This document shows, one piece after another, positions 20,604 to 47,048 of a stretch of DNA of 64,000 nt. Positions within the stretch are counted from its first letter, which is position 1. Each line of letters starts with the position of its first letter. The position numbers and the translations under genes are program-made. The notes beneath the pieces were generated by a model, which saw only the letters and a list, made by a program, of their open reading frames with translations, was not told where the DNA came from and ran no database searches. Source of the stretch: a virus. Location of the stretch: IMG/VR virus record IMGVR_UViG_3300025425_000002; one strand, written 5' to 3'.

Positions 20604-21146
20604 ATGGCAACCTATAATGAAATAACAGCAGCAATAGAACTCGGGTGGGCTTACTACGTCGAGCAGTTAGAGGTTATTCGGTTGAAGCAGGTGGAGGGTT
20701 GCTTTGTTTGTACGTGCAGCGAGTTATCGTGCCTAGCAAGTGCGATACAGTCCTTAGAGTATGATGTGGAGGTTGAGAACAACTCACCCCTGACAACCAT
20801 TGCTTACAATCAGCTACTCTCTTTAATCGCAAACTTCACAGGTGCGTTCACCGCAGATCCGACTGTTCAAATTGCCGGGATAACAATACTAGACGGCAGC
20901 ACCGCTACGATTGCTCAGACAGCGGTTGTAACTCCTGGCGATGGGGTTTCGTCTTACGTATTCCCTGAACTGATAGGTAACGAAGCGCTATCTGTTTACA
21001 GAGGTACGGGTACTACGCTTAGAGCACATACTTCTGCGGCCACTGATGAGTTCGCACAAATTAACTATTCCACAGGCACAGTGACCGTGAACTATCCATT
21101 TGGGGTGGATGAAACGCTTTGGGTCAGCTATAAAATAACGACATGA
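20604..21146 (+). CDS. hypothetical virion protein (180 aa)
   Basis: ATG start. Its stop overlaps the fibre gene start (ATGA). Confidence 0.6.
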   Translation: MATYNEITAAIELGWAYYVEQLEVIRLKQVEGCFVCTCSELSCLASAIQSLEYDVEVENNSPLTTIAYNQLLSLIANFTGAFTADPTVQIAGITILDGSTATIAQTAVVTPGDGVSSYVFPELIGNEALSVYRGTGTTLRAHTSAATDEFAQINYSTGTVTVNYPFGVDETLWVSYKITT

Positions 21147-26360: not shown

Positions 26361-26520
26361 TGTAATTAAAATAAACGCCCTATAAGATACGCTATAAAAA
26401 AGCAGGGGCTTGGTCTGTAATTGAAGCGGTGTGCATCTATTTGTCATTTGTGGTAGGCTGAAAGGGTGTGCATCTTAATCCCTGCCTTCTTATAGCGTCA
26501 GCCGTTATAAGCAATAAAAA

Positions 26521-26751: not shown

Positions 26752-26863
26752 TTCCGTATTGATTAGATTTGGCAGTTGTGTTTCTGCCTGCCTCGAATTG
26801 GATTATTTGGGCGTTCAGGAATTGCGATCCTGCGAGTAGGATTAATAGGGTTAGGTCTTTCAT
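26735..26863 (-). CDS. possible 42-aa exported peptide
   Basis: TAATG-coupled to the upstream gene. MKDLTLLILLAGSQFLNAQ is signal-peptide-like. Below the track cutoff. Confidence 0.3.
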   Translation of the reverse strand: MKDLTLLILLAGSQFLNAQIIQFEAGRNTTAKSNQYGNESRN

Positions 26864-31586: not shown

Positions 31587-32228
31587 TTAGCTGTTTATCC
31601 AATCGTTCCAATCATTCTGATCATTCCGATCATCCGTTAGTACTTCCTCGGCACACCTTAGTATGTGTAAACCCATTTCTGGCACTACGCAATTACGCAA
31701 CACTTTTCGTTTATCTATGCCTGTGTAGCTGTCCAAGTCGAAGCCTAGTTTTTCAGATAGAAACTTCCTCTCTTCAGGTTTTTTGCAAGTTTCTAACTTC
31801 TCGAACTCCATAGGCTCTATGTGGAAATTACACCAAATGGCGTGCCGGTGTAGTATTGTACTCGGCTTTATCAAAGGGGCGTAGTAAGGTATTACATTCT
31901 CAATTACCCACAATCCTTTATACCACTTTTGCAATAGGATTATCTCGGCGTACAAAGTCATATCGGGGTAAACGATTACTTTATTCATTGTCCGTAACCT
32001 ACTATGTGTAGGGCAAGGAGGAGATGCCCAAATAATATCAAACTCTTTAAAGTGGTCTAGTAGGTATTGGTGGGCGTCCCCTACAATTACAGTATCGTTT
32101 GGGAAGTGCTCTTTGTATATAGCTGCTATATTAGGGTCGTACTCTACGGCTGTAATTTCGTACCCGTCACCCCATAGTTTTCTGTTACCCCCTATTCCTG
32201 CGTATAGATTCAGTATTTTCTTTTTCAT
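31587..32228 (-). CDS. compact DNA (cytosine-5) methyltransferase-like protein (213 aa)
   Basis: Motif I LYAGIGG, motif IV ASPPCPTHS, motif VI WVIENV, motif X-like RNCVVPE. Acidic/Trp tail DDRNDQNDWNDWINS. Confidence 0.7.
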   Translation of the reverse strand: MKKKILNLYAGIGGNRKLWGDGYEITAVEYDPNIAAIYKEHFPNDTVIVGDAHQYLLDHFKEFDIIWASPPCPTHSRLRTMNKVIVYPDMTLYAEIILLQKWYKGLWVIENVIPYYAPLIKPSTILHRHAIWCNFHIEPMEFEKLETCKKPEERKFLSEKLGFDLDSYTGIDKRKVLRNCVVPEMGLHILRCAEEVLTDDRNDQNDWNDWINS

Positions 32229-32233
32229 CTTCT

Positions 32234-33565
32234 TTAATTATCTACCCAATCGTTCCAATCATCCGTTAACAAATTCGTTCCACTCTTTTGCTTTTCGCCA
32301 CAAGTCCCAGAAGGCAAGTTCGGCGGTTTGTTCGACCACTGAGTTGCCAATGGCACGGTGAAGATCCTCTGTAAAGTTGTACCCATTAATTGAATACTCC
32401 ACGCTGGATTCAACCGTGCGGGGCTCTTCCCATTCGTGCTGATAAATTCCTTGACCTGCGGGAAATCGGTGTTCATAACGACAGCATTCGGTAGCTGACT
32501 GAGGTGTGGCCTTTCCTTTGAGTCGAAATGTTCCTGCGAGTTCGCCCCCTTGTAGTCTCTGGTTGCTGGTGTCGGCCAATTCTTCATCTCTCCGTACACT
32601 GCTGCATCCCTCATATTTGAGAAGCTGCTCCTGCCCGGTCTTGTTTCGTTCATCTCCTTGTCTATCGCTTTGTCCGTCTTTGGGGGCAGTTGATCCATCG
32701 TTGTTGGTGTTGGCCAATTCTTCGCTGCATTGCTCAGTCCTTGCTGTTTGCTCTTGGCACTCCTTCTGTCTGAGCAATCTGGTGTTGGCCAATTCAGTGC
32801 TTGGTGAGTCAGAGATGTATTTTTCTTCATTCCGTCTGCCGTGTAATAAGCAGTCCCTTTCCACACCCATCCTAACTCTTTTGCTCTCTCCGGTGATATC
32901 TCTCCTTGTTGTGTTGTCGCAGGGGTCGCCCAGTTCAAAACCTTGCTGTTCAAGTCTATCGTCCATCCCTTCTCCTCTTTGCGTTGGTAATTTCCCGACT
33001 CTGGTAGGTCTAGGCTCCGGAAGTCCCGGCTCTGCGGAGTTGGCCACCCTAATTGCGAGGATGAACAATCTTTCCCGCCGTTGAGGAGCGCCAATTTCTT
33101 CCGCTGAGTATATTCCTGCCTCAACGAAGTAGTCCATTTCTTCCAGTTCACGTTTAACCACGTCGAACCCGAGTGTAAGGTGACCTGCGACATTCTCAAA
33201 GAAACACCATCCGGGTTTAATAGTTCTGACGTGTTCTCGAATGAAGGGCCACAGGTGACGTGGGTCATTTTCTCCTGCTCGGTTACCAGCCAGGGAAAAT
33301 GGCTGACAAGGGTATCCGCCAATAATTCCATCAATGAGTCCTCGAAACGGTTCCGGATTGAAGGTTTTAAGATTCGTCCAGATAGGTGCTGGAGCCACCA
33401 GACCCGCTTCCATTGCAGCAAGAAGGTTTTCCACGATAAAGGCTTCGATTTCCACATAAGCACAGGCTCTAACTTCTCGAAATATTCTTTCAAGTCCTCT
33501 TTCGATTCCACGTATTCCGGGGCATAGACTGATGATAACGGGTGATTGTTTGGTAAAATCCACAT
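32234..33565 (-). other. fully overlapping +1-frame ORF (frame B, 443 codons) carrying five (N/G)W(P/A)TPxxxD repeats
   Basis: The ATG abuts the primase stop (TAAATG). The WPTP repeats vary only at frame-B third positions. Ends LTDDWNDWVDN, like the neighbouring MTase. See finding. Confidence 0.6.
32259..33563 (-). CDS. DNA (cytosine-5) methyltransferase, frame A (GTG start in track); middle third looks out of frame
   Basis: LCPGIRG (I), GGYPCQPFS (IV), FFENV (VI), QRRERLFILA (VIII), INGYNF..AIGNSVVEQ (IX/X). The central ~200 codons are R/E/Q/G-rich and featureless. Confidence 0.7.
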   Translation of the reverse strand: MDFTKQSPVIISLCPGIRGIERGLERIFREVRACAYVEIEAFIVENLLAAMEAGLVAPAPIWTNLKTFNPEPFRGLIDGIIGGYPCQPFSLAGNRAGENDPRHLWPFIREHVRTIKPGWCFFENVAGHLTLGFDVVKRELEEMDYFVEAGIYSAEEIGAPQRRERLFILAIRVANSAEPGLPEPRPTRVGKLPTQRGEGMDDRLEQQGFELGDPCDNTTRRDITGESKRVRMGVERDCLLHGRRNEEKYISDSPSTELANTRLLRQKECQEQTARTEQCSEELANTNNDGSTAPKDGQSDRQGDERNKTGQEQLLKYEGCSSVRRDEELADTSNQRLQGGELAGTFRLKGKATPQSATECCRYEHRFPAGQGIYQHEWEEPRTVESSVEYSINGYNFTEDLHRAIGNSVVEQTAELAFWDLWRKAKEWNEFVNG

Positions 33566-35914
33566 TTATATTTGTTTGTTGGTTAATTCTAATTCGTCTA
33601 TTGCATGTTCAGTACTGCCTACTCTAACATAGCTCCTTTGATTTCCATACTTCTTGTAGCTCAGTGTTCCGCATCGCTTCCACCCCTCTAAATTCAGAAG
33701 CGCATTATGGATATACTTGGTATTGTAAGCGTTCATATCTGCTAAATTGTTGTTGAACAGCTCGCACCAAACCTCTGCGGTGCAAATCTTATCTCTGCGA
33801 ACTGTTCCTTCCTGATCTCTGGTGCTGGTGTAGGACACCCGCTCATACCGGCTCATCTGCTCCCAATTCGCTGGAAGTAGCATCTCCGCAAACCCTTCAA
33901 TGAGTCCTGCACGCTCGTCCGATTCGGTGTGAAGTCGTTGTTGTTCTCCCGCCATTTCTTCTAGTGCTTTGGTTAAGTACAGTTTCTCCCCTTCTTTGTA
34001 TCTGTAAACGGCCTCTGCCCAAATTTCGTCCGCATTGATCGTTCCAGGTATGTACTTCTTAGTAACCGAAAGCGGCCAAAAACGTCTGCCCCCTGTGGGG
34101 TCTTTCATAAAAGACCATTCGTTCGTAGACCCAAAAAACACACCTTGGCGTTTAAAGTTCGTGTTGTACCTCATAAAAGGCGGACGGAAACGATCTTCGC
34201 GCTTAGATATAAAATTCTTAACCGCCTCGATATCCCCTTTTTTAATCGCTGATAACTCAGCCATCTCGATGATCCACGCTCCCTGAAGTTGAATGTATGC
34301 GTCTTTACCTGTCACGCTGTCTAAGGTGTCTGAGAACCATTCTCCGCCCAAGTCGTATAAAAGCGAACTCTTACCTTGCCCCTGCCCGCCAATAGTTACG
34401 ACCATATAGTCGAACTTGCAACCCGGTTCGTGAACTCTGGCGACTGCAGCCACAAGCGACTTTCGAGTAACGGCTCGGGTGTATTCCGAATCCGGTGCGC
34501 CAAGTTGGTCGATGAACAGCGTATCCAGTCTAGGCACGTCGTCCCAAATCAGTTTCGCTAGATATTCTTTAACCGGATGGAAGGTGTTGTCTCTACAAGC
34601 AAGCACAAAAGCATCCTTGCTCTTAGCGGTGTGATACATGTTGTAACTTTTTTCAAAGTAGTGTCTCACGCCCGATTCGTCGTCGTCTCCTACCTCTCTA
34701 ATCTTCTTATCAGAATGCCAAGGCACACCGCCTTTTGCATAAAGTCGGTAGTCGAACTCATTGGCTGAAAATCTACCTTTGAGATTCGGATCATTGCGAA
34801 GAACCAGTAAGAAGTTATCTATGGTTGGTGCGTATTCGTGTTGTTTGTTCACTTCCATCTGACCGAGCCAGTCTGTACCCCCTTCGGTAATACTATCACC
34901 TAGTTTGAAAATGCCTAGCTCCTGAATTACTTTTGGGTCTGTCCGTGCTAAGTTATTCATGGATTGGAAAGATATTTTTTGCGTACCATCCCCGTCCATC
35001 ACCCCAAACTTATGGATGCGAACTAGATCGAAAGCATTATGTATGTGACCATTGTTTGCCGGGTCCGTGGAGTGGTGGCTGTACAGAAACTTGTCCTGGT
35101 AAACAAGTGCCCCTGAACTACCTTGCCCCTCAGTATAGGTGTACCTGCCCTCTCCTGCCTCCACATACGTCTCAGGGATGAACTCTTCTATGGCTTGATG
35201 GATACTATAAACCCTGCAAAATGCGCCGATCACACCTTCTTTCTCAAGCGGGTCTTCTTGCTTTTTAAGGTCAGAGCGTATAATCTCACTCTCCGTTGGG
35301 CAAAGAGGCCATTCCGAGACGTTCTTCCAATCCCTGTATTCGGCTAAAGTATCGTCTACGCCTAGCCATTTACCTTCTTGCTCTTTAAAGTAATAATCAC
35401 CGTCCTTCGCCGTAGATGGCCAGTACATCAACCGCTCAGACTGAAAAGTAGTACGGTCGAAATATTTCATACCTACCCCATCTGCAATCTTGCGCCCTAG
35501 CGCCTCGTACTCTTCCGGTGATGCAGGTCTGTCAAGCGGCAGTACCAAGCGAAACCTTGGGGCGATCATGGAATGCTTATGGGTGGAATATACGACCGCT
35601 GCTATTGGGAAGTACATACAAAAGTCATCCCACAGTTCAGAGTATCCAAAATCTATATCTAAAGTTAATATTTGACGGTGCTTGATAAACCCTTTAGCCC
35701 TTCTGCCTTCTAAAAGATACCCGCCAACAAAACCACCAACGTCTTTAATCTCATCTTGTCTTGGCCTAGGAGAGGACATGTATGAGGCATAACTCTCCGC
35801 TGTCCGGTGAGTTTGAGACAGACGCTTTGTAATCTTAGCCCACGGCCACTGCTCGTTGTGATAGGCGGCTTGGCGATGGGGCGTTGTTGCTATGTCTAAT
35901 GGGGTTGCGTTCAT
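33566..35914 (-). CDS. DNA primase/helicase (VirE / P4-alpha type: N-terminal primase-polymerase, C-terminal P-loop NTPase)
   Basis: 782 aa. VVTIGGQGQGKSSLL Walker A in the C-terminal half. The N-terminal LTLDIDF ... STHKHS ... RFRLVLPL region is primase-like. Sits next to the polymerase, as in the DUF2800-type replication module. Confidence 0.75.
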   Translation of the reverse strand: MNATPLDIATTPHRQAAYHNEQWPWAKITKRLSQTHRTAESYASYMSSPRPRQDEIKDVGGFVGGYLLEGRRAKGFIKHRQILTLDIDFGYSELWDDFCMYFPIAAVVYSTHKHSMIAPRFRLVLPLDRPASPEEYEALGRKIADGVGMKYFDRTTFQSERLMYWPSTAKDGDYYFKEQEGKWLGVDDTLAEYRDWKNVSEWPLCPTESEIIRSDLKKQEDPLEKEGVIGAFCRVYSIHQAIEEFIPETYVEAGEGRYTYTEGQGSSGALVYQDKFLYSHHSTDPANNGHIHNAFDLVRIHKFGVMDGDGTQKISFQSMNNLARTDPKVIQELGIFKLGDSITEGGTDWLGQMEVNKQHEYAPTIDNFLLVLRNDPNLKGRFSANEFDYRLYAKGGVPWHSDKKIREVGDDDESGVRHYFEKSYNMYHTAKSKDAFVLACRDNTFHPVKEYLAKLIWDDVPRLDTLFIDQLGAPDSEYTRAVTRKSLVAAVARVHEPGCKFDYMVVTIGGQGQGKSSLLYDLGGEWFSDTLDSVTGKDAYIQLQGAWIIEMAELSAIKKGDIEAVKNFISKREDRFRPPFMRYNTNFKRQGVFFGSTNEWSFMKDPTGGRRFWPLSVTKKYIPGTINADEIWAEAVYRYKEGEKLYLTKALEEMAGEQQRLHTESDERAGLIEGFAEMLLPANWEQMSRYERVSYTSTRDQEGTVRRDKICTAEVWCELFNNNLADMNAYNTKYIHNALLNLEGWKRCGTLSYKKYGNQRSYVRVGSTEHAIDELELTNKQI

Positions 35915-36732
35915 TGGTTTAGCCCTTTAAAAATATGTGCAATTACATCTACTGTCCAGCCGTTTCCAAGCATTTTATACCGGTTTGTTTTTGCAACACA
36001 ATCGGTATATCCAATCGGTACTGTTTGTAATTTTTCACATTCAGTAGGCGTTAGCATACGGTGTGCTTCTCTGTCACCATCTAAAAAGCCTTCTCTTATA
36101 CTTACTGCTGGTCTTGAACTCCCTCTTATACCTTTCCAATATGTTGCAGTTAACGTATTGAAAATTTGTTTACGTTTAAAAACTCTATCAATACCGCAAC
36201 TTGTTGGGAACCCCTCACCATCAATATAATCTAAAACATTGTATTCCGATTGTTTCGGTTGTTCTACATTCGGTATATTAGTCCAGTACAATCTTCGCCC
36301 TGCTTGTGGTACAAATTTAGCACTTGTAATTTCAATAGGTTTTACACCCAATGCTTCTGTAATTACATCTTTCCACTCCTTCTTCATAATCACATTTTCA
36401 AGTAAAAAGTAAGTTGGTTTCACTTCGTTTAATACCCTTACAAATTCCCAAAACAATTTACTACTTACATCTTCAAAGTTTAACTGTTTCCCCGCAAAAC
36501 TAAACCCTTGACACGGAGAGCCACCAATCACCAAATCTATCTTGTGAGGGATGAACCAAGGGTCAACCTGCGTTACATCTCCGATATGGGTGATATCCGG
36601 ATAATTAGCTTTGCTTACTTGAATCGCATATTTGTCGATTTCAGAGGCGTAGTAATTGGTTACGGGAATACCAGCTCTTTCCAGAGCAATCCGCCCGCAA
36701 GACATCCCGTCGAATAGTGATAATATGTTCAT
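35911..36732 (-). CDS. DNA (cytosine-5) methyltransferase (273 aa)
   Basis: SLFDGMSCG (I), GGSPCQGFSFAG (IV), FLLENV (VI), MLGNGWTVDV (X). ATGA-coupled to the primase gene. Confidence 0.9.
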   Translation of the reverse strand: MNILSLFDGMSCGRIALERAGIPVTNYYASEIDKYAIQVSKANYPDITHIGDVTQVDPWFIPHKIDLVIGGSPCQGFSFAGKQLNFEDVSSKLFWEFVRVLNEVKPTYFLLENVIMKKEWKDVITEALGVKPIEITSAKFVPQAGRRLYWTNIPNVEQPKQSEYNVLDYIDGEGFPTSCGIDRVFKRKQIFNTLTATYWKGIRGSSRPAVSIREGFLDGDREAHRMLTPTECEKLQTVPIGYTDCVAKTNRYKMLGNGWTVDVIAHIFKGLNQ

Positions 36733-39199: not shown

Positions 39200-39715
39200 A
39201 TGAAAATAGTAATCAATGTAGAAGCTGACTCAGTAGAGGAAGCGCAGGCCGCTTTTGCTCAATTAGCAGGCACGGCTCAATTAGCAGGCACAGCGCAAGA
39301 AGCTAAAGAAGAAACTGCTCAGGTAGAAAAGCCGAGAGCATCGCGCGCAAAACCGGTAGATAAAGTTGTAGAAACGCCTGCGGTAGCTGATCCTTTGGTA
39401 AACGCTCCTGAGACTAAGGTAGTACCTATTAATGCTGACCCTCTAGCTGGACAAGCTACATCGGTCGGCCCACTAACTGCCGCTCCGGTAACTCAAACTA
39501 CCGCTGACCCACTAACTGCTGCTCCGGTAACTCAAACTGGCCTAATCTCCTTGGCGACGCTTCGTGAGCAAATTGGTAAGATGGGCGACAAGCGTCAGCT
39601 AGTTAAAGACTTGATGGGTAAGTACTTCAAGTCGGACGGACAGCCTTGCGAAAGACCTCCTGACTTACAAGAGAAGGACTACCAGTCATTCTTTGACGCT
39701 TTAGAGTGGTTGTAG
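39200..39715 (+). CDS. Ala/Pro/Thr-rich repeat protein (171 aa)
   Basis: Contains an 18-bp tandem duplication (39257-39292, AQLAGT x2) and a 39-bp tandem duplication (about 39468-39540, DPLTAAPVTQT x2). Confidence 0.6.
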   Translation: MKIVINVEADSVEEAQAAFAQLAGTAQLAGTAQEAKEETAQVEKPRASRAKPVDKVVETPAVADPLVNAPETKVVPINADPLAGQATSVGPLTAAPVTQTTADPLTAAPVTQTGLISLATLREQIGKMGDKRQLVKDLMGKYFKSDGQPCERPPDLQEKDYQSFFDALEWL

Positions 39716-39719
39716 TATT

Positions 39720-40904
39720 ATGGGAGAAGCATCAGCACACGCAAAACTATCACCATCGTCTGCAAAGCGGTGGTTAGCCTGCACGCCCTCTGCGCATTTC
39801 GAGTCGCAGTTTCCAAACGTGGAGACTGTGTTCGCCGCAGAGGGCACGCTTGCCCATGCCGTAGCCCAAGAAATATTAGAGTTCAGGCTAGGCTTGCAAA
39901 CCGAAGAGAGCTACATCGACAACCTAATCAAACACCAATCTCATAAGCTGTACGCCGATGAGATGTTAACGCATGCCGAGCAGTACGCTGACTTCTGTCT
40001 GTACGATGCAGAAGAGGGTGACGTGTGCGCCGTAGAGACTCGGTTAGACATTACGGAGTTCGTGCCGGAAGGGTTCGGTACAGGTGACTTTATGCGCGTT
40101 CACATAGAACGCAAAGTATTGAAGTTCAAAGACCTCAAATATGGAAAGGGCGTTGCCGTTTCGGCTATTGATAACGAGCAGCTCAAAATATACGCATTGG
40201 GTGCTCTGGCGTGGTGGGGGTGGGTGTACGACATCGAAACCGTTGAGGTGAGCATTTATCAGCCTCGCATCAATAACAACTCTACGTGGAGTATATCAGT
40301 AGTAGACTTAGTGAACTGGGCAGAAACGGTCGTTAGACCTAAAGCTAAATTAGCGTTTGTGGGAGAGGGAGAGTTTGTAGTGGGCGACCACTGTAAGTTC
40401 TGCCGTGCCAGAGTACGTTGCCAAGCCTTAGCCGATCATAATTTGGATCTGTTCAAACACGAACTAAAGTCAAGTGAGGAGCTATCCGATGAATCCTTAA
40501 TCGAAATTGTGAAGAGGGGCAGCTTACTCGCTGCCTGGTACAAGGATATTGAGGAATATGTGCTGAGTGAGGCGGTCAAAGGGAAGCATTGGGAGGGGTT
40601 TAAATTAGTGGAAGGCAAGAGTAACAGAGTGTTTGTTAGCGCGTCCGCTACGGAGGCTAAACTGCTCGAAGAAGGGTTCACCGATATATACACGCCGGAA
40701 GTCTTACTAGGTATAACTGCCTTAAAGAAGAGTATAGGTGCCAAGGCATTCAAAGCGTTCGTCGAACCAGATTTGCGCAAGCCTGCGGGTAAACCGACTT
40801 TGGTGGGCGTGGATGACCCAAGACCTGCGTTCGATGACGCACTTAGTGTGTTCAAGGATGCTGAGATTTCGGCAGAGATAGGAGAGGAGGGTGATGATGA
40901 TTAA
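39720..40904 (+). CDS. PD-(D/E)XK nuclease, DUF2800 / Cas4-RecB-like
   Basis: N-terminal AHAKLSPSSAKRWLACTPS, GTGDFMRV...FKDLKYGKG nuclease core, and a CKFCRARVRCQ Cys cluster. Confidence 0.8.
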   Translation: MGEASAHAKLSPSSAKRWLACTPSAHFESQFPNVETVFAAEGTLAHAVAQEILEFRLGLQTEESYIDNLIKHQSHKLYADEMLTHAEQYADFCLYDAEEGDVCAVETRLDITEFVPEGFGTGDFMRVHIERKVLKFKDLKYGKGVAVSAIDNEQLKIYALGALAWWGWVYDIETVEVSIYQPRINNNSTWSISVVDLVNWAETVVRPKAKLAFVGEGEFVVGDHCKFCRARVRCQALADHNLDLFKHELKSSEELSDESLIEIVKRGSLLAAWYKDIEEYVLSEAVKGKHWEGFKLVEGKSNRVFVSASATEAKLLEEGFTDIYTPEVLLGITALKKSIGAKAFKAFVEPDLRKPAGKPTLVGVDDPRPAFDDALSVFKDAEISAEIGEEGDDD

Positions 40905-41205
40905 GGAGCAATTTGAACACATATCCGACTGGCAAACCAAAACATTCGGTCAAGCCACAGCACTATCTAAGATTGTGCATCTGAAGCAGGAAGTACAGGA
41001 GTTGGAAGCAGATATCCGTTCAGGTAATATAGAACGGAGATTGGAGTATGCAGATTGTTTCATACTTTTGTTCGGCGCGGCATCCTCTGATGGTATGTCG
41101 TACCAAGACATAACCGCTTGCATTAATGAGAAGATGCGTATCAATGAAAATAGAGTGTGGGGTCTTCCGGACGAGAATGGGGTAGTTAATCATATTAAAA
41201 GTTAA
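40894..41205 (+). CDS. MazG-like nucleoside triphosphate pyrophosphohydrolase (all-alpha NTP-PPase)
   Basis: LKQEVQELEADI ... EYADCFILLFG fits the E..E...E..D pattern. The track start is a GTG at 40891; the first ATG is at 40894. Confidence 0.55.
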   Translation: MMIKEQFEHISDWQTKTFGQATALSKIVHLKQEVQELEADIRSGNIERRLEYADCFILLFGAASSDGMSYQDITACINEKMRINENRVWGLPDENGVVNHIKS

Positions 41206-41206
41206 A

Positions 41207-41261
41207 CAAGTAAATCAAGTAAATCAAGTAAATCAAGTATAAACAATTAAATCAAGTGAAA
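41207..41261. repeat. 9-bp tandem repeat CAAGTAAAT x3 perfect + 3 degenerate copies
   Basis: caagtaaat caagtaaat caagtaaat caagtataaa caattaaat caagtgaaa, immediately upstream of the SSB ATG. Confidence 0.9.
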
Positions 41262-41849
41262 ATGTCAGATCTACAATCAAATGAAGTAGTAACCGGAGAG
41301 TGCCGGTTATCGTACGTAACCTTGGCGGAGCCAACGTTAATGAAGGGTGCAGCTAAGGCCACCTACAGTGTTAAAATTCTAATCGCAAAGACTGACACGG
41401 CAACGCTTAAAGCGTTAGGTGCGGCTCGGGATGCGGCTAGAGCCAACGGCGTGGCCGAAGGCAAGAAGCCTTTTTCTACCTACAATGCCGCTAAATTAGC
41501 TTCGATGAACTTAACCTTGAAGGATGGCGATGAGTCAGATCGCGATGAGGAAGCGGGTTGCTGGTTACTGAATGCCAAAACACCCGAAGATAAGCCACCA
41601 GGTGTTATCAACGAGAAGAAAGAGCGTACTAAAGATCCTATCGAGATTTACTCAGGTATGTATGGTAGAGTTCACTTGCAGTTGTTTCCTTACGACACAA
41701 ATGGCAACGCGGGTATAGGGGTTAGCTTGCAGAATGTGATGAAGACTAAAGACGGTGATCCGCTAGGTGGCGCACGTAAGCGCCCAGAGGATGTGTTTGG
41801 TTCTCCTGCAGATGCAAGTCCTTTTGAGACAAGCGGAAGTCCTATCTAA
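41262..41849 (+). CDS. ssDNA-binding protein, DUF2815 type
   Basis: The N-terminal VVTGECRLSYVTLAEP is typical of this family. Genomic context with DUF2800 and PolA. The track start is a GTG at 41256; the first ATG is at 41262. Confidence 0.65.
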   Translation: MSDLQSNEVVTGECRLSYVTLAEPTLMKGAAKATYSVKILIAKTDTATLKALGAARDAARANGVAEGKKPFSTYNAAKLASMNLTLKDGDESDRDEEAGCWLLNAKTPEDKPPGVINEKKERTKDPIEIYSGMYGRVHLQLFPYDTNGNAGIGVSLQNVMKTKDGDPLGGARKRPEDVFGSPADASPFETSGSPI

Positions 41850-41870
41850 TCGTATTAGCTTAAAACAAGA

Positions 41871-41899
41871 AAAGCCTCTCAGAAATGGGAGGCTTTTTT
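41871..41899. terminator. bidirectional rho-independent terminator
   Basis: AAGCCTC..GAGGCTT stem flanked by an A-run and a T-run (aaaagcctctcagaaatgggaggctttttta), between convergent genes. Confidence 0.7.
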
Positions 41900-41904
41900 A
41901 TTTG

Positions 41905-41981
41905 AGCGGGTAGTGGGACTCGAACCCACTTTACCCAATCGCTGCAAAACCACGTAGGAATTACAATGCAGGTATACTCGC
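41905..41981 (-). other. tRNA-like element: canonical T-arm + Gly-type acceptor 3' strand, degenerate 5' half
   Basis: Minus strand ...GTGGG TTCGAGT CCCAC TACCCGC T. A partner GCGAGTA lies 77 nt upstream. No D-arm or anticodon stem can be folded, and there is no CCA. Confidence 0.5.
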
Positions 41982-42565
41982 TACCAATCATCAATAGTTT
42001 TACCTTTTACAATATTGTACACTTGCCAAGTTAGTTCCAAATCGTAGACTGCATCGTGCAACTTACTATCGTCCACATCAACGCCAACCCATTTAGCGAC
42101 TCTGTGTAGCTTGAATGAGGGCATTTTATGACGGTCGGGCATCAAGTACTGTCCTGCTAACACCATAACATCTATCCCATTCTGCCAAAAATAATTTCCG
42201 AAACTACTATCCCCCTCTAGCACGAATAAATTACGGAGAAATTCATTATCGAACCAGCTATTGTTATACCCCACCAGGAAGAACTTGTCTTCCGGATTGA
42301 ACAGGTCAATGTGCTTATCCAATAAATCCACAAACCTTCCAAACTGAACGGTTCTATGCTCGTAAGCCATAACTGTTTCCGGGTCTACACCAGATACTTT
42401 CAAAGCCATCTCATCAATTACCGCTTTCTCATGCGGTCTTATCTTCAAATCAATTACTTCTGTAATCTTACCGTCTATGACTACCATAGCGGAGAGCTGG
42501 TGGATGCTGTGCTGCCAGTGTTTAACGCCGGTAGTCTCTACGTCAAACACTAAAATCTTCTCCAT
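41981..42565 (-). CDS. DEDDh 3'-5' exonuclease (DnaQ/epsilon-like)
   Basis: LVFDVETTG (Exo I), GYNNSWFDNEFL (Exo II), HDAVYDLELT (Exo III, H-x4-D). Confidence 0.85.
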   Translation of the reverse strand: MEKILVFDVETTGVKHWQHSIHQLSAMVVIDGKITEVIDLKIRPHEKAVIDEMALKVSGVDPETVMAYEHRTVQFGRFVDLLDKHIDLFNPEDKFFLVGYNNSWFDNEFLRNLFVLEGDSSFGNYFWQNGIDVMVLAGQYLMPDRHKMPSFKLHRVAKWVGVDVDDSKLHDAVYDLELTWQVYNIVKGKTIDDW

Positions 42566-42708
42566 CAGTAAAAATTTAAAAATAAACAGCCTCCGTAGTC
42601 ACGCTTGAATATCGCAAGCGCCTCCTGTTCGGAGTGCGCCTCTATGCTTACGGTGCGTGATCTGCCGTAATAGTCTTCATATTCTATTTTAAATTCTTCT
42701 GTTGTCAT
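42565..42708 (-). CDS. 47-aa hypothetical protein
   Basis: ATGA-coupled to the RNase H-like gene and TGATG-coupled to the exonuclease gene. Below the track cutoff. Confidence 0.45.
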   Translation of the reverse strand: MTTEEFKIEYEDYYGRSRTVSIEAHSEQEALAIFKRDYGGCLFLNFY

Positions 42709-43190
42709 AATAAAATATCTGTTAAATCATAAATTATAGCCTTAAAGCTACCTTTGTTTTTTCGGTGTTGTTTGCTGACCTTATCACACCATCTGTTCAT
42801 TACCGATGCGTCGTCATGCCCTCCGGTATGCGCCTTGGCGTGATTAAGTTCTATCAAGTCAAACACCTCACTTGGGCGGTTGCCGTTCTTCAAAGCGAGT
42901 CCTATCAGGTTGAACACATAGGGGTGTTTGATATCTTTCATCCGGTGTATCGCCTCTGTGCTATCTGTGAATATCTCCACCTTGGTCAGCGGTACTAGGT
43001 CTTTAGTGAATAAGAGAGTCACTGCATCGTTTATTGCGTAAAGTTCTCCTTTAGCAATCTTATCTATGTGATGCACGTAACCTGCGACTCTGTACTCGAA
43101 CTGGTAGCACTTTATAATGTAGGCATAGCCACATCCACCTCCTGCGTTGTTCACATTTACCGATGCGTCTGTATAGATTTGGATGTTCAC
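42705..43190 (-). CDS. RNase H-like (RNase HI fold) nuclease
   Basis: IYTDAS ... GELYAINDA ... IFTDS ... C-terminal H/D residues give a DEDD-like arrangement. GTG start overlaps the upstream stop. Confidence 0.55.
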   Translation of the reverse strand: MNIQIYTDASVNVNNAGGGCGYAYIIKCYQFEYRVAGYVHHIDKIAKGELYAINDAVTLLFTKDLVPLTKVEIFTDSTEAIHRMKDIKHPYVFNLIGLALKNGNRPSEVFDLIELNHAKAHTGGHDDASVMNRWCDKVSKQHRKNKGSFKAIIYDLTDILL

Positions 43191-44392
43191 TACAAATCCT
43201 CCATTATCTCATAACTAATCTCACCACCCGTTCTATCCACCATCTCTATGCCCATTTGAAGGTCTTCCTTCTCCGCCCAAGCCAATACCTCTTGTAGTGA
43301 CACATTGTCTAGCATAGAGGCGTCAAAGTGCAGCATCCTAACATTACCCACGTTAATTGATGCCAGTTTAAGCGCTGCAATGTAAATAGCGGAGGAGGAT
43401 AGCTGCTCCTTGGTTAGCGGATAGCCGTTGTAAGTGATCCCCTCATCGGCAAAGCCAAAGCCCTTGGGCATCTTAGCGCCTTTAATGAGGGCGTCTTTCT
43501 CTGCCATAAGGTCCTTAACGGCTAAGTCCTTCTCGTGTGCGATGTCTTTAAGCCCGGTCAGGCTCTCTAGGGCGATGCGTAGTCGATTGTTCTCTTCTAT
43601 GCGTATATTTTGTTGCTTTAAGGCGGTGAGTGTCTCTGAGAGCTCCGATACGTGCTCAGGCGTCTTAGGTTGCAAGTCCGGTGCGCTTAACTGCTCATCC
43701 AGAGTATCCAACTTAGCCCCTATCTGTTTCAACTCCTCTAGTAAGGCCTGCTGGCGCCTCATTAGCTCCTCTTCCTGCCCTGTTAATTGGGCGTAGTAGC
43801 GGTTGTGGCTCTCTACACCCAATAGTTCCTTCTGCAAGTCCTCTGTGGGTGTAGGCTCAAGCGGTAGCTTCTCATCCACGTACTTACCTTTGTAAGTAAT
43901 CTCCACTCGGTCCACATCCCGATTAGCCTCCTTGCGATCTTCGGTCGCCTTGACGTACCGCTCATCAATACCACTAAAGTCAAGCCCTAACAATTTCTCC
44001 AAAGACTTTCTCTGCGCTGCTGGTGATTCGTTCAGGAACTTATCAATGTCAAAACTGCCGGGGCTGAACCACTTGATGATGTCTGTGATGACTGAGGTCT
44101 TGCTTCCATCGCTGCTGATTAGGGTTAACTTCTCCCCGGCTTTGGTTTCTGTGCTCAACTCCCACTCAATCCGATCCCCTGAAGTGAACTCCATGACGTA
44201 CATACCAGAGGTTTCTCCGGCCCTGACAAGGTGGTCTGCTTTCAGCTTTAAAAGCCGGTCTTTCAGCGAGCGGAGCAAGGTAGACTTACCTTTGTTGTTG
44301 CCCCCCATCAGGATTGCCGTTGCTCCGTTGAGGTTCAACTCTTGCTCTGCGATGGCTTTTACATTGGTTACTTTAATTCTTTTTACTTTCAT
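43190..44392 (-). CDS. SMC/Rad50/RecF-like ABC ATPase with central coiled coil (400 aa from MKVKRIKV)
   Basis: ILMGGNNKGKSTLL Walker A, a long coiled-coil middle, LSSSA signature-like motif, and MLHFDASMLD Walker B. The track ORF extends 16 codons upstream. Confidence 0.7.
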   Translation of the reverse strand: MKVKRIKVTNVKAIAEQELNLNGATAILMGGNNKGKSTLLRSLKDRLLKLKADHLVRAGETSGMYVMEFTSGDRIEWELSTETKAGEKLTLISSDGSKTSVITDIIKWFSPGSFDIDKFLNESPAAQRKSLEKLLGLDFSGIDERYVKATEDRKEANRDVDRVEITYKGKYVDEKLPLEPTPTEDLQKELLGVESHNRYYAQLTGQEEELMRRQQALLEELKQIGAKLDTLDEQLSAPDLQPKTPEHVSELSETLTALKQQNIRIEENNRLRIALESLTGLKDIAHEKDLAVKDLMAEKDALIKGAKMPKGFGFADEGITYNGYPLTKEQLSSSAIYIAALKLASINVGNVRMLHFDASMLDNVSLQEVLAWAEKEDLQMGIEMVDRTGGEISYEIMEDL

Positions 44393-44412
44393 TTTTTTTG
44401 TTTGGTTAAGGT

Positions 44413-45285
44413 TTAAAAAGGTTCGCACGACTCTGCGCATCCGCCGTACTCTATTTGGTCTAACTCAAAATCAAAATTAGGCTTATTGGTGTCAGAGTAT
44501 TTTAGGAAATCTTCATCGATTAGTAACCTCAAATCTGCCATTGATCGGTTCTCCCTAAAAAAATAATAAGGTGCGTGGCCTTGCGTCCTGCTAGGTGGTG
44601 TGAACATAGAGTACTTTCTCTCCATATCTTCAACCCATGTGTCGTTTGGCGCTTCCAATGCTTGTGTGAGTATTTTCCTGTCTGTTTTTTTATAGCACCT
44701 TCGGCAATTACCTTGGTGCTCCATCAAACCTAGATCAAAAGGCTGCTGTTTAAAGAATTGCAGTACGTCTGCTTTAGCTATCTTCCACTCGTATAGTGGG
44801 TAGTACTGTTTCTCAATTAAAGCCTTTTCGAGTTTAACACGTCCCGGTTCATCGAATCTGTACCCTATCGCCGTAGTGTATTTTTTGTGCTCTCCCCACC
44901 CTATACTTTTCATATATGCACGGATGGGGTTTGTCTTCAATTCGCGGGTACAGTGGGGGAATTGGGTGTTGGGGATACCATACTTCTTTATGACCTCTTC
45001 AAAAACGCTTCCGTCTCTTTTAGCGGTTTCAAAATTAACCACTTTGTACGTACTTCCTTTTCGCTTGTTGTGATGCACAATAGCTTCGACCCATGTAATA
45101 GGTATACCCCAATACTTAGTAATATTAGCAACAAAAACCAGCGTTTCTTCTTTCTCCCTGCTGGTGTTGGCAAATACGAAAATCATTTCATACTTTTCTT
45201 GGTAGCGGTCATGCAGGAGTTTAGCCATAAGCGCGGAAGTCCTACCCCCTGATACGGATACTAATAGCTTCTTTTTGCTTAGCAT
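44413..45285 (-). CDS. PAPS-reductase-family PP-loop ATP pyrophosphatase (CysH/DndC-like fold)
   Basis: LLVSVSGGRTSA PP-loop, YPLYEWKIAKADVLQF...QGNCRRCYKK and a terminal GGCAESC. The track GTG start at 45366 is rejected for the ATG at 45285, which has a GGAGGA upstream. Confidence 0.7.
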   Translation of the reverse strand: MLSKKKLLVSVSGGRTSALMAKLLHDRYQEKYEMIFVFANTSREKEETLVFVANITKYWGIPITWVEAIVHHNKRKGSTYKVVNFETAKRDGSVFEEVIKKYGIPNTQFPHCTRELKTNPIRAYMKSIGWGEHKKYTTAIGYRFDEPGRVKLEKALIEKQYYPLYEWKIAKADVLQFFKQQPFDLGLMEHQGNCRRCYKKTDRKILTQALEAPNDTWVEDMERKYSMFTPPSRTQGHAPYYFFRENRSMADLRLLIDEDFLKYSDTNKPNFDFELDQIEYGGCAESCEPF

Positions 45286-45343
45286 GGGTAATCCTCCGCT
45301 AGTATAGAGGTTAAGGTTTCTAGGGTCTTCATAATTTATTTGG

Positions 45344-46279
45344 TTAGGATAGTTCCATTTCAGCACATCTTTTCATGTCTGCCAAAGCGGCCTCGTTGTT
45401 TTCAAAAAACCGTGTAGGACTGACCCGAATTTCAGATGACTTTTTATAGATCATCAGGGCAGCAAAAATAGTGGATGTTCTTTCTTCAAGTTCTTTGCCT
45501 TTTTTGCCTGCTAATTGAACTACCCACCCAGCCCTGCAATGCGTAGTATCGCAGGTGTGCCATTCTTCCATGTTTAAAGCATTCGGCGCAGATACGGCTT
45601 CTAATATTTTGTTGTGTATATTTGAAAGTTTAGGTATTGTAATCTTGCTTTTTTTTCCTTTTTCCTTTTTTTCACCTGTTAAACTGTGATATTTGAAACA
45701 GTCGGAACATCTGGAACAGTCGGAACATCTGGAACAGTAGGAACAGTCGGAACAGCTGGAACAGCCGGAACATTCGAAACAGTCGGAACAGCCGGAACAG
45801 TCGGAACAGTCGGAACAGTCGGAACAGCCGGAACAGTCGGAACATCTGGAACAGTAGGAACAGCCGGAACAGTCGGAACATCTGGAACAGTAGGAACAGC
45901 TGGAACAGTAGGAACAGTCGGAACAGCTGGAACAGCCGGAACATTCGAAACAGTCGGAACAGCCGGAACAGTCGGAACAGTCGGAACAGTCGGAACATCT
46001 GGGACAGTAGGAACAGTCGGAACAGTCGGAACAGTCGGAACATCTGGAACAGTCGGAACAGTCGAAACAGTCGGAACAGTCGGAACAGTCGGAACAGCCG
46101 GAACAGTCGGAACAGTCGGAACAGCTGGAACAGCCGGAACAGTTAAAACACACCATATTTGTCACATTCTGTTTTTCGTAATCTGGATTTTTGTCTGCAA
46201 AATCCTGATCTACGCCGTTACTTTCTTTGTCCTCTCTTTGAAGGAAGTCTGAATAGTTTTTAAAGATTTGTGTTTTCAT
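45344..46279 (-). CDS. cysteine-rich (Cys-Ser-X)n tripeptide-repeat protein with a globular C-terminal domain
   Basis: About 150 aa of CSDCSGCSDCSD... (about 50 C-x-x units), followed by ..EEWHTCDTTHCRAGWVVQLAG.. ATG start. Confidence 0.75.
   Translation of the reverse strand: MKTQIFKNYSDFLQREDKESNGVDQDFADKNPDYEKQNVTNMVCFNCSGCSSCSDCSDCSGCSDCSDCSDCFDCSDCSRCSDCSDCSDCSYCPRCSDCSDCSDCSGCSDCFECSGCSSCSDCSYCSSCSYCSRCSDCSGCSYCSRCSDCSGCSDCSDCSDCSGCSDCFECSGCSSCSDCSYCSRCSDCSRCSDCFKYHSLTGEKKEKGKKSKITIPKLSNIHNKILEAVSAPNALNMEEWHTCDTTHCRAGWVVQLAGKKGKELEERTSTIFAALMIYKKSSEIRVSPTRFFENNEAALADMKRCAEMELS
45695..46147. repeat. 9-bp tandem repeat array (GGAACAGTC family, about 50 units) with a higher-order duplication of about 171 bp
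   Basis: Read directly. A block of about 80 nt (gtcggaacagctggaacagccggaacattcgaaacagtcgg...) recurs at about 45745 and 45916. The array is open in several frames on both strands. Confidence 0.95.
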
Positions 46280-46418: not shown

Positions 46419-46616
46419 CTAAGTTAAAATGTAATAAATACAAACCACTACCAACAGCCCGAGACCAAACATGCTGCGGTATAGCCACTTTGGATTAGGG
46501 TCTTGTAAGTGGTGCTCATGCGGCTCTTTAGGGTGTAGCGCTTCGTTGTTGAATAGGTACAGCGTGACCATTGCGGCGCACAGTAGTGCTAGAATTAGGA
46601 TGGGTAGGTAGCTCAT
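46419..46616 (-). CDS. small two-TM membrane protein (65 aa)
   Basis: MSYLPILILALLCAAMVTLYLF and GLGLLVVVCIYYIL hydrophobic helices. Confidence 0.55.
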   Translation of the reverse strand: MSYLPILILALLCAAMVTLYLFNNEALHPKEPHEHHLQDPNPKWLYRSMFGLGLLVVVCIYYILT

Positions 46617-46628
46617 TTCTGTTTGGTT

Positions 46629-47048
46629 TTAATCCATATTATCTAAATCGTCCTGAGTTATCTCAAGGCAGTCTATCTTATCTGCGCAGTTCTCCAGGAA
46701 AACGTGCAAGAAAGGTTCGTTAAGTCTAGGCATGATACCTCTTACGAAAGTATGCCCTTCCTTAGATACGAACTTCCACACAGGTACGTTGAACATATCG
46801 TGTCCCCAATCGCTACTTTCTAAAGTCTCATAGATAGTAGGTCTTAAATCAGGACTATCTCCTAAGCGGTTAAACCCTTTGGGCATCCCTAAAAATAGTT
46901 TCCCTACGTTTGACATTAGCGTTCCGGCATAATGCTTTCCGCACCCTACACCTCCTTGAGGATTTTCTAAGAAACAAGAGATACCCCTACCATTAACGCA
47001 CCCTGCGCATTGGTATTTTTCTACTGCTTTTTTTATTTCTGTTTTCAT
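46629..47048 (-). CDS. hypothetical Cys-containing protein (139 aa)
   Basis: ATG start. A CAGCVNG...C...GCGKH cluster near the N-terminus. Confidence 0.55.
   Translation of the reverse strand: MKTEIKKAVEKYQCAGCVNGRGISCFLENPQGGVGCGKHYAGTLMSNVGKLFLGMPKGFNRLGDSPDLRPTIYETLESSDWGHDMFNVPVWKFVSKEGHTFVRGIMPRLNEPFLHVFLENCADKIDCLEITQDDLDNMD

Follow-up and report, generated by a model that had tools for sequence, protein, structure and literature searches.

The gene at positions 45344..46279 of the window, by which we mean the whole 64,000-nucleotide stretch of the virus record IMGVR_UViG_3300025425_000002 that was analysed, encodes a protein in which cysteine recurs at every third residue over a long internal run. 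This raises the questions of whether such a reading frame is a real gene, to which family its product belongs and what its cysteine-rich run may do.

A three-part protein built around a cysteine array

The reading frame is that of a real phage gene. From N- to C-terminus, its 311-aa product runs through a cap, the (C-S-x)51 array, a linker and a head. The features of the locus are as follows.

45344..46279, minus strand: whole gene, complete (311 aa, 54 Cys, pI 4.6, 34 kDa; from the ORF list and the sequence)
46151..46279, minus strand: N-terminal 'type A' cap, residues 1-43 (MKTQIFKNYSDFLQREDKESNGVDQDFADKNPDYEKQNVTNMV)
45692..46150, minus strand: array of 51 C-x-x tripeptides, residues 44-196
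45638..45691, minus strand: Lys/Glu/Gly-rich linker, residues 197-214 (YHSLTGEKKEKGKKSKIT; read from the sequence)
45347..45637, minus strand: all-helical C-terminal head, residues 215-311 (from homologs and AF2)
45524..45562, minus strand: signature motif W-H-T-C-D-T-T-H-C-R-A-G-W within the head, residues 240-252 (WHTCDTTHCRAGW)
45686..46252, plus strand: spurious ORF (VGTSGTVGT...), opposite-strand product of the array, not a gene
45672..46043, minus strand: spurious ORF (MFRLFRLFRLF...), other frame of the array's strand, not a gene

A preliminary description of this DNA had proposed about 50 tandem Cys-Ser-X tripeptides encoded by a 9-bp array, flanked by an N-terminal region and a C-terminal region with a Cys/His motif, and had predicted that the array would generate spurious ORFs. 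The count confirmed 51 uninterrupted C-x-x units between an N-terminal region of 43 aa and the motif-bearing head, and both spurious frames listed above were found. Similar shadow ORFs accompany the array of phage FL-1, whose record lists one of them, APZ82901.1, as the CDS of a hypothetical protein.

Within the 51 units, the residue after Cys (X1) was Ser in 45, Phe in 5 and Pro in 1, and the third residue (X2) was Asp in 24, Gly in 8, Arg in 6, Tyr in 5, Ser in 4, Glu in 2, Asn in 1 and Lys in 1; the array had a net charge of -19 and a pI of 4.05. The underlying 9-bp unit was TGT-TCC-NNN, with TGT encoding 51/51 Cys and TCC encoding 45/45 Ser, and Tandem Repeats Finder placed the 9-bp array at 45697..46143 (49.7 copies, 84% matches, score 609). 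The ~171-bp higher-order duplication reported earlier proved real but modest, with an exact 98-nt run at offset 171 and an identity of 0.878 vs ~0.86 at other multiples of 9. The JGI contig Ga0208903_1000604 was 100% identical to window positions 46002..39344 and starts inside the array, so that only 306 bp of the array were reproduced independently and 51 is the count of this assembly. No other assembly spanning the array was recovered when metagenome and viral contigs were scanned for exact matches to the 5' flank and to the head (0 hits). Such arrays break short-read assemblies, and gene callers then give fragments; on Ga0208903_1000604 the gene was called only as a 75-aa piece.

The type A cap leads directly into the first array unit, at CFNC, and is kept in 120 of the fetched homologs; T3, F12, R15, N21, G22, V23, N41, C44 and C47 are invariant in an alignment. 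Its AF2 model (pLDDT ~90) showed a beta-alpha-beta-alpha-alpha arrangement, and neither Pfam nor NCBIfam contained a match to it. AF2 assigned pLDDT values of 34-46 and no secondary structure to the array, and ~90-95 to the cap and head; we infer from this model that the array is probably disordered on its own, without a ligand. No fold match to the full-length model was found in the PDB. Linkers of relatives varied in both length and sequence. The 311-aa sequence contained no signal peptide, and the protein would therefore sit in the reducing cytoplasm. Pfam and PADLOC searches with the protein gave no matches, and its exact sequence was absent from a collection of 15 billion proteins. The window contained no tRNA-Cys or tRNA-Ser genes, and a promoter and terminator scan gave nothing above shuffled expectation.

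A large family with a shared head and interchangeable repeats

The protein matched phrog_15341 (E 8.8e-34; array region, in 3 stretches) and phrog_31265 (E 7.1e-26; head, residues 215-309), both catalogued as function unknown. The database search for (C-S-x)n proteins that the preliminary description had recommended returned 674 clusters matching cap plus array, and relatives were located at 422 IMG/VR loci, with arrays of at least 12 units in 75 of the best 80. Members share one plan, in which a small cap at the N-terminus precedes a (C-x-x)n run with 3-69 Cys, and a ~95-aa helical head with C-x-T-x-H-C-R-A-G-W follows. Judged by these matches, the family has hundreds to thousands of members in phages and prophages and is uncharacterised. 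The earlier remark that the architecture was not recognised as a described family stands in that no characterised family fits, but phrog_15341, phrog_31265 and this large family already cover it.

Prophage copies were found in isolates and MAGs of many bacterial phyla, and cultured-phage members include Flavobacterium phage FL-1 and Vibrio phage 1.238.A. The three-part plan, the head motif and the C-x-x run were all present in FL-1 (KY421186.2), Dyadobacter sp. CY261, Rhizorhapis suberifaciens DSM 7465 and Kaistia dalseonensis B6-8. These four relatives, like both phrogs, are annotated 'hypothetical'. In the deposited FL-1 genome the gene carries a +1 frameshift within the head motif, around record position 27058, which, if real, would make it dispensable in the laboratory; the FL-1 record splits the gene into separate CDSs. 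No near-identical phage turned up among 50,697 phage records when the surrounding 5 kb served as a megablast query. This is accordingly a very large family, with hosts of many phyla, for which a literature search found no paper and for which we found no described function or solved structure; its records get fragmented, split or mislabelled and are in this way missed by catalogues.

The head had 216 close homologs, and a profile search extended it to 1,763 representatives at the 50% clustering level. In the close homologs H, C, T, T, H, C, R and G of the signature motif were invariant, and distant members keep the core C-x-T-x-H-C-R-[AG]-G-W, with a varying spacing between the first His and the first Cys. 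For the C-terminal domain, whose modelling had also been suggested earlier, AF2 produced an all-helical structure of six helices (pLDDT 91.5), in which the motif's second Cys immediately precedes the start of a helix (model helix 38-45), and the fold search found no match in the PDB (best E 4.5). The sole match in BFVD was the head's own homolog from phage FL-1, and a head profile had no match among PDB sequences.

The modules joined to this head differed among family members. The 146 new representatives with the same head comprised 44 with Cys arrays, 26 standalone heads and 76 classed as 'other', the last being mostly pentapeptide-repeat fusions (judged by eye) together with LRR and DUF4116 fusions. 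Pfam models PF00805 and PF13475 and the LRR models confirmed one example each of the swapped repeat modules, and NCBIfam pentapeptide models matched ORF34 of Ralstonia phage RSK1. Conversely, cap plus array was also found joined to other C-terminal domains, or to none. The repeat module is thus interchangeable among family members, and pentapeptide repeats appear, mostly by eye, to be the commonest module in the wider family.

RSK1 ORF34, labelled 'putative pentapeptide repeat protein', carries a homologous head (51-54% identity over ~90 aa), and the pentapeptide sisters share the order of cap, variable-number tandem repeats and head. They differ in the repeat unit, which is A(D/N)LXX there and C-S-x without a predicted fold in the window protein; no Pfam or NCBIfam match to pentapeptide repeats (PF00805) was found in the window protein, whereas its sister proteins do match. 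A(D/N)LXX repeats form a quadrilateral beta-helix, as in MfpA and Qnr. The N-terminal caps also differ, and a common origin was rejected both for type B and the pentapeptide cap (hhalign Prob 0.5%) and for type A and type B (Prob 3%, covering the first CxNC only). As the three kinds of cap are not detectably homologous, a swap within one framework holds for the head only.

Evolution of the array

Comparison of 76 arrays revealed that each is codon-homogeneous, whereas different phages taken together draw on all six codons for Ser and on both for Cys. Within arrays, non-consensus bases made up 29-35% at X2 codon positions 1-2 vs 3-5% at the three wobble positions, so that nonsynonymous variation at the exposed repeat position was far above synonymous variation. 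Across arrays X2 was Asp in 37%, Gly in 22%, Arg in 13%, Asn in 9%, Tyr in 9% and Ser in 5%; Ala (<0.2%) and Val (0.2%) were nearly absent, though each is one mutational step away. Aromatic residues (Y, W, F) occupied ~16% of X1 across the family. Homogeneous arrays whose codons differ between phages, together with the X2 variation, show that the protein is what selection acts on and that the array grows by DNA slippage. The run lengthens and shortens by slippage or unequal recombination of the 9-bp unit, and protein selection keeps Cys at every third residue, mostly with Ser next to it and a varied hydrophilic third residue (D, G, R, N, Y, S).

Array length varied widely. The 204 distinct complete arrays held 8-69 Cys (median 22), with shorter runs, down to 3 Cys, in other relatives; only 4/204 had at least 50 Cys, which places the 51 units of the window near the long end. 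Two Dyadobacter prophage copies with near-identical flanks contained 6 and 35 units, and this difference, with the range of 3-69 Cys among relatives, bears out the copy-number hotspot that had been suspected. Cys counts showed no quantisation modulo 2, 3, 4 or 5 and were uniform, which speaks against separate Cys4 sites and against disulfide pairing as a requirement. Arrays had no preferred higher-order unit period, the best unit lag being spread evenly over 1-8, and a fixed-turn solenoid therefore receives no support. Net charge ranged from -0.79 to +0.27 per unit, so that an acidic DNA-mimic surface is common, not universal. A DNA-level role as iterons was rejected: the 9-mer differs among phages (TGTTCCGAC, TGCTCTGAT, TGCAGCGAT, TGCTCGGAC and others) and the peptide pattern is kept, which excludes a conserved DNA site.

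Competing explanations and a proposed role

The explanation that we place foremost, tentatively and at somewhat less than even confidence, is that the array is a putative metal-thiolate-dependent repeat scaffold in an early host-interaction protein. Several other explanations have to be weighed against it. That the array is a repeat created by the assembly, or a DNA repeat without coding function, such as origin iterons, that happens to be open in one frame, is barely credible. The break of the identical contig inside the array, the 20/80 viral contigs that end in or at the array-coding region, the want of an independent assembly across the array and the position within a replication module would fit it, but hundreds of assemblies made independently of one another, isolate genomes and a 981-kb contig among them, have the frame linking two conserved domains, and the DNA unit changes among phages under a constant peptide pattern. 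The replication/recombination module of the window comprises RNase H, exonuclease, Enc34 SSB, DUF2800, PolA, a VapE-like protein and methylases, and the commonest neighbours in relatives were YqaJ, C5 methylase, DnaB, SNF2/DEAD helicases and NinG. The PP-loop enzyme previously noted next to the gene was recovered as a member of the PP-loop/PAPS-reductase family (PADLOC SspD 9.5e-15, with a PAPS_reduct match), and a RecF/SMC-like ATPase follows it. A persulfide or sulfur carrier serving this PAPS-reductase/SspD-like enzyme and its AAA ATPase partner, as the preliminary description had suggested, would agree with these matches and with the adjacent, co-directional genes of the window phage. However, a PP-loop homolog was present in only 1/81 related loci and the ATPase in 2, and the most frequent neighbour family reached at most 12/80 loci; on this comparison of loci, the sulfur-carrier explanation is largely refuted by the absence of conserved linkage, and we regard it as highly improbable. 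Somewhat less remote, but still very unlikely, is that host enzymes act on the array by Cys/Ser chemistry, forming azoline or azole rings (comparators being heterocycloanthracin, sonorensin and microcin B17), thioether or sactionine links. Cys-Xaa-Xaa repeats with tripeptide indels between close relatives are a hallmark of heterocycloanthracin precursors (Haft 2009, PMC2674419), and both are seen in the window protein and its relatives; the heterocycloanthracin/sonorensin group (TIGR03601, PF27784) also shares a low-complexity coding sequence that confuses gene callers (PMC2674419), and a precomputed match to Pfam PF27784 'Sonorensin' exists in two relatives. The precedent for the cross-linking substrate proposed earlier is thus real, but its members are secreted precursors of 50-100 aa with C-terminal repeats and dedicated cyclodehydratase, docking and dehydrogenase genes, whereas the window protein is a cytoplasmic 311-aa protein in which the array lies between two folded domains. 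It had no match to the NCBIfam heterocycloanthracin leader model (TIGR03601). Searches for YcaO, cyclodehydratase, docking, dehydrogenase and radical-SAM genes found none in the window ORFs that were covered (all those of at least 300 aa and most of the replication module) and none in the neighbour families that recur in 80 relatives. In addition, hosts of many phyla would all need a compatible enzyme. The sole NCBIfam match of the protein, HxsA4 (E 0.13), is a weak similarity that could be counted in favour of such chemistry, but the His-Xaa-Ser repeat system was rejected, with 13.1 bits against a cut-off of 55 and no radical-SAM genes in the window ORFs scanned.

We consider two further explanations, each of them unlikely. 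One is metal sequestration, in which the array would be a giant metallothionein-like sink or store (Zn, Cu, Cd, Fe-S) and the head would regulate or anchor it. In Cys content and spacing the array resembles metallothioneins (~30% Cys in C-x-C or C-x-x-C), with 51 Cys in 153 residues, or 33%, all spaced C-x-x-C; Ser, Asp and Gly lie between them without a hydrophobic core, much like the Ser/Asp/Gly/Asn fillers of metallothioneins, which are about one-third Cys with CxxC spacing and likewise have no predicted structure without metal. Apo-metallothioneins are disordered, as is predicted for the array without a ligand, and free length variation without quantisation fits a capacity-type function. 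The family nevertheless departs from metallothioneins in its strict period of 3 (up to 69 Cys), its multidomain build (34 kDa in the window protein), its aromatic share of X1 and its lack of sequence homology to them. Metallothioneins are small, have few or no aromatic residues and form stoichiometric metal-thiolate clusters. Sequestration as the function is also opposed by a head that is more often joined to pentapeptide, LRR and DUF4116 repeats, which do not bind metal, by hosts that span many phyla and habitats, with neighbouring genes that show no link to metal resistance, by the diversification of X2 beyond simple composition and by the aromatic residues common at X1. The other explanation is an unstructured, length-variable spacer or low-complexity region that could serve as ruler or redox-sensitive tether, or could drive condensates, and whose cysteines would oxidise and not bind metal. 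It would account for the absence of AF2 structure, the free length variation and the lack of a fixed super-period, but not for an invariant residue at strict period 3 across hundreds of lineages with differing codons, nor for the exclusion of Ala and Val at X2, and in a protein without a signal peptide the cysteines would lie in the reducing cytoplasm. Metallothionein-like, Fe-S and redox roles, all putative, are each plausible.

The best PDB sequence match of the protein was the Tenebrio molitor antifreeze beta-helix (1EZG; IPR016133), which also has periodic Cys in short Ser/Thr-rich repeats; the match (E 1.8e-4) carries a composition bias of 38 bits. The insect antifreeze beta-helix is a secreted, disulfide-bonded protein with 12-residue TCTxSxxCxxAx turns and Cys at every sixth residue. 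It was rejected as a model, the window array having a period of 3, no TCT motif and no signal peptide, and AF2 building no helix. In Vibrio phage 1.238.A, gp68 is labelled 'insect antifreeze protein'.

In the metal-thiolate scaffold that we favour, the array would be thiolate-rich and disordered alone, and would be shaped by a putative bound metal, either in Zn2+-type thiolate clusters or as Fe-S. In the head, H241, C243, H247 and C248 are candidate Zn2+ ligands. The metal-bound array would present a fast-evolving, usually acidic surface and, together with the head, could act like the pentapeptide-repeat rod of sister proteins, as an arm that decoys or binds a factor of the host (or phage). 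The gene would be expressed together with the early replication and recombination genes, and would be neither functionally tied to its PAPS-reductase-like neighbour nor a RiPP precursor. A bolder form of this proposal, to which we give little weight, is that (C-x-x)n is an undescribed linear metal-thiolate/Fe-S 'rod' of adjustable length, without a PDB counterpart and swapped with pentapeptide beta-helices, which serves as the decoy or DNA-mimic arm of a counter-defence or host-takeover protein with a new-fold Cys/His head.

The swapping of chemically unrelated modules (pentapeptide, LRR, DUF4116, poly-CxxC) before one conserved head and the nonsynonymous excess both speak for a surface that evolves fast and engages in interactions, as is expected of genes in phage-host conflict. 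Should the array bind metal, it would amount to a poly-thiolate polymer whose length can be tuned genetically, and on which metalloprotein design could draw.

The Cys-array gene and its family

We analysed the minus-strand ORF of the window that encodes an N-terminal cap (type A), an array of C-x-x units, a linker and a C-terminal head, a helical domain of about 95 aa with the motif C-x-T-x-H-C-R-A-G-W. The gene and its repeat were located as follows:

45344..46279, minus strand: Cys-array gene, ORF of 311 aa
45697..46143: 9-bp tandem array (Tandem Repeats Finder, 49.7 copies, score 609)

The protein carried 51 C-x-x units in a row at residues 44-196 with zero interruptions, in agreement with the preliminary description of about 50 tandem Cys-Ser-X tripeptides encoded by a 9-bp array. 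The second residue of the unit (X1) was S in 45 units, F in 5 and P in 1, and the third (X2) was D in 24, G in 8, R in 6, Y in 5, S in 4, E in 2, and N and K in 1 each, giving the array a pI of 4.05 and a net charge of -19. The 171-bp higher-order duplication proposed earlier was recovered as an exact 98-nt run at that offset, only slightly above other offsets, and the ORF list contained the expected spurious shadow ORFs generated by the array in other frames.

Pfam, NCBIfam and PADLOC returned no significant match for the window protein. Among the PHROGs, phrog_15341 matched the array (E 8.8e-34) and phrog_31265 the C-terminal domain (E 7.1e-26), both families of unknown function. The C-terminal ~95 aa had 216 close homologs, mostly standalone proteins of 100-115 aa, and the N-terminal part plus array retrieved 674 clusters (190-280 aa) that share its three-part architecture. 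The architecture had been called undescribed, which holds for the literature but not for databases, given these two PHROGs and 674 clusters. Relatives also occurred elsewhere: 422 loci were found on viral contigs, with arrays of 12-50 units in 75 of the 80 best, and a survey of one genome per bacterial species revealed prophage copies in Bacteroidota, Proteobacteria, Patescibacteria, Cyanobacteria, Planctomycetota, Nitrospira and others. Carriers included the isolates Dyadobacter sp. CY261, Rhizorhapis suberifaciens DSM 7465 and Kaistia dalseonensis, and the longest array in a bacterial genome (65 units) lay on a 981-kb contig of a Spirosoma bin. Across 204 distinct complete arrays the median was 22 Cys, and only 4 reached at least 50; the window copy is therefore near the long end, not unique. 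These results show that the ORF is a real gene belonging to a huge family; the protein joins a group that PHROG catalogues yet that is wholly uncharacterised.

The existence of the window array is secure, because a second contig, JGI Ga0208903_1000604 (27.2 kb, 100% identity to window 46002..39344), reproduces 306 bp of it; the count of 51 units rests on the window assembly. This contig starts inside the array, and its gene caller therefore reported just a 75-aa head fragment. No further assembly across the array turned up in exact-pattern scans, and a 15-billion-protein collection held no exact-sequence copy of the 311-aa protein. Of the 80 best viral loci, 20 lay on contigs that stopped within or at the repeat-coding sequence, as did 22 of 80 genome loci (L005-L164 and L003), with Cys arrays and pentapeptide arrays alike, and gene callers then report the head fragment alone. 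The array thus breaks assemblies, and the breakage is systematic.

Repeat modules of the head family are interchangeable

A head-profile search yielded 1,763 representatives after clustering at 50%. The 146 newly fetched representatives comprised 44 Cys arrays, 26 standalone heads and 76 others, the last being, as judged by eye, mostly proteins in which a variable number of pentapeptide repeats occupies the array position. A few head proteins carried LRR-like, DUF4116 or other short tandem repeats, and Pfam verified one example each of the pentapeptide, LRR and DUF4116 types. Ralstonia phage RSK1 ORF34 is one of these pentapeptide-head fusions and bears the annotation "putative pentapeptide repeat protein". 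Conversely, the type-A cap and C-x-x array were also joined to at least two other C-terminal domains, and in Vibrio phage 1.238.A gp68 to none. Alternative caps occurred as well, two before Cys arrays and a third before pentapeptide repeats, with no homology among them by profile comparison. The repeat modules of the head family are thus interchangeable.

Some homologs (P0157, P0169, P0182, P0201, P0219, P0232, P0234, P0236 and P0240; likewise P0202, P0228 and P0208) combined cap and array with other small C-terminal domains, for which Pfam gave no match; one domain contained ...IGSRxxQTTxYW...VVCGCFKGTLEEFExKV, another ...MGCHLRTRKDWE..., and the common element was G-C-x(4-5)-[ED]-[EFW]. In two Aquabacterium MAGs (loci L144 and L155) and in Urbifossiella (L164), the head followed further tandem repeats, e.g. 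12-aa units VLGIASAATVDR and ASVGRY-type units, so that the module set before the head extends beyond pentapeptide, LRR, DUF4116 and C-x-x repeats. Flavobacterium phage FL-1 (KY421186.2, about 26455-27271; L001 4397..5213) encoded a type-A cap, ~37 C-x-x units and a head, and its record contains an extra A (ACTCAATTGTCGT) that shifts the frame precisely within the T-H-C-R-A-G-W motif, which reflects a sequencing error or else natural pseudogenisation in the cultured phage; the annotation splits the gene into separate hypothetical CDSs, among them an array shadow ORF. The Vibrio phage gp68 (NC_055735.1; L165 5001..5375) has 124 aa, a type-A cap and ~25 C-x-x units, with K, E, A or W at X1, not Ser. 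Its "insect antifreeze protein" label (InterPro IPR016133) is a motif-level misannotation.

AlphaFold2 modelling of the C-terminal domain, a check proposed earlier, gave a confident six-helix head (81-sequence alignment, pLDDT 91.5), in which the invariant H-C of the motif ended a lower-confidence loop directly before helix 38-45. Foldseek detected no PDB fold match (best E 4.5) and only the FL-1 homolog in BFVD, and sequence profiles identified no solved relative. In the full-length model, pLDDT was ~90 for the cap, ~95 for the head and 34-46 for the array, which had no secondary structure. The Tenebrio antifreeze beta-helix was rejected as an array homolog; this best PDB sequence match (E 1.8e-4) carries 38 bits of composition bias and is compositional.

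Evolution of the array

Cys and Ser codons were near-uniform inside each of 76 arrays (TGT for 51/51 Cys and TCC for 45/45 Ser in the window), and each array has been homogenised or lately expanded at the DNA level. Between phages, Cys was encoded by TGT or TGC and Ser by all six codons, of both the TCN and AGY classes, while the peptide pattern stayed constant; the peptide is therefore conserved, not a DNA site, and selection on the Cys period acts at the protein level. Within arrays, non-consensus bases made up 29% and 35% at the first two positions of the third codon and 3-5% at the three wobble positions, thus X2 nonsynonymous variants were several-fold over-represented relative to synonymous ones. 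Across the family X2 was D, G, R, N, Y, S or H, and Ala and Val were almost absent, though each is one step from GAC or GGC. The suspected copy-number hotspot was strongly supported by the range of 8-69 Cys in the 204 arrays and by a pair of Dyadobacter prophage copies that have 6 versus 35 units between near-identical flanks. These sequence patterns show a diversifying X2 and a plastic array length, and we read the history as purifying selection on Cys (and largely Ser), selection for varied hydrophilic X2 and rapid slippage-driven length change.

Genomic neighbourhood and possible function

The gene sits in a minus-strand block, an early or replication module. Downstream lie a PAPS-reductase/SspD-like PP-loop protein, a RecF/SMC-like ATPase, RNase H and an exonuclease; nearby genes encode an Enc34-type SSB, DUF2800, PolA, C5 methylases, a SNF2 helicase and a VapE-like domain protein, probably a primase-helicase. 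The window had no tRNA genes. The VapE-like gene is flanked by methyltransferase-like ORFs within 31587..36732 (minus strand):

31587..32228, minus strand: C5 cytosine methyltransferase-like ORF
32234..33565, minus strand: third methyltransferase-like ORF (phrog_1008)
35911..36732, minus strand: C5 cytosine methyltransferase-like ORF

Together they suggest heavy self-methylation of phage DNA. At 43190..45366 (minus strand) the PP-loop protein, whose best defence-library match was SspD (E 9.5e-15), directly precedes the RecF/SMC/AriA-like ATPase (phrog_1499). Together the two recall the core pairing of PP-loop protein and ATPase in Dnd/Ssp phosphorothioation systems, and they may form an independent phage DNA-modification or counter-defence module. 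In the 340-bp gap immediately upstream of the Cys-array gene, a 65-aa ORF (46419..46616, minus strand), which has two hydrophobic stretches, may encode a small membrane protein. Further upstream, a 139-aa ORF (46629..47048, minus strand) with a Cys-rich N-terminus (KYQCAGCVNGRGISCF...GGVGCGKH) matched no Pfam or PHROG family. In the structural module, very large plus-strand ORFs of 2,614 aa (12250..20094) and 1,100 aa (21143..24445) had no PHROG match at E <= 1e-5.

The array had been proposed as a sulfur carrier for the adjacent PP-loop enzyme. This was not supported, since a homolog of the enzyme occurred in just 1 of 81 related loci. The most frequent single neighbour family reached at most 12 of 80 loci, the commonest being YqaJ exonuclease, C5 methylase, DnaB, SNF2/DEAD helicases and NinG, and there is no conserved partner. 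The proposed Cys/Ser cross-linking has its closest described parallel in heterocycloanthracin/sonorensin, bacteriocin precursors whose Cys-Xaa-Xaa repeats vary by tripeptide indels between strains (PMC2674419), and two relatives had a precomputed Pfam "Sonorensin" match. The repeat is common to both; however, the window protein is not a short precursor, lacks leader homology and does not carry its repeats C-terminally, and maturation enzymes were not found. Cross-linking is unlikely, as no YcaO/cyclodehydratase, azoline dehydrogenase or radical-SAM protein was detected in window ORFs of at least 300 aa plus most of the replication module, or among recurrent neighbours in relatives.

Metal or redox roles are plausible. 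The array resembles metallothioneins in composition only. The most economical reading, we infer, is a metal-requiring thiolate scaffold, because Cys recurs without exception at a strict period, a hydrophobic core is lacking, ligand-free disorder is predicted and the window protein has no signal peptide; it is presumably cytoplasmic. The array would take shape only when metal is bound, with X2 facing outward as a fast-evolving surface. Counting against a simple version of this scaffold, Cys number in the 204 arrays is unquantised, a fixed super-period is absent, and array charge spans strongly acidic to mildly basic. In Qnr, MfpA and McbG, pentapeptide-repeat rods mimic DNA or bind proteins. 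The window protein belongs to the pentapeptide-repeat family via its head only, and its array may be functionally parallel to the rod of its sister proteins. The descriptive parts of this explanation are all but certain, its metal and decoy components are perhaps true but rather doubtful, and the explanation as a whole is somewhat less doubtful, though still tentative.

The single gene matters less than the family it exposes, very large, assembly-breaking and mis-annotated phage proteins, notable for an unusual poly-Cys module, a head without a PDB fold match and signs of conflict-driven evolution.
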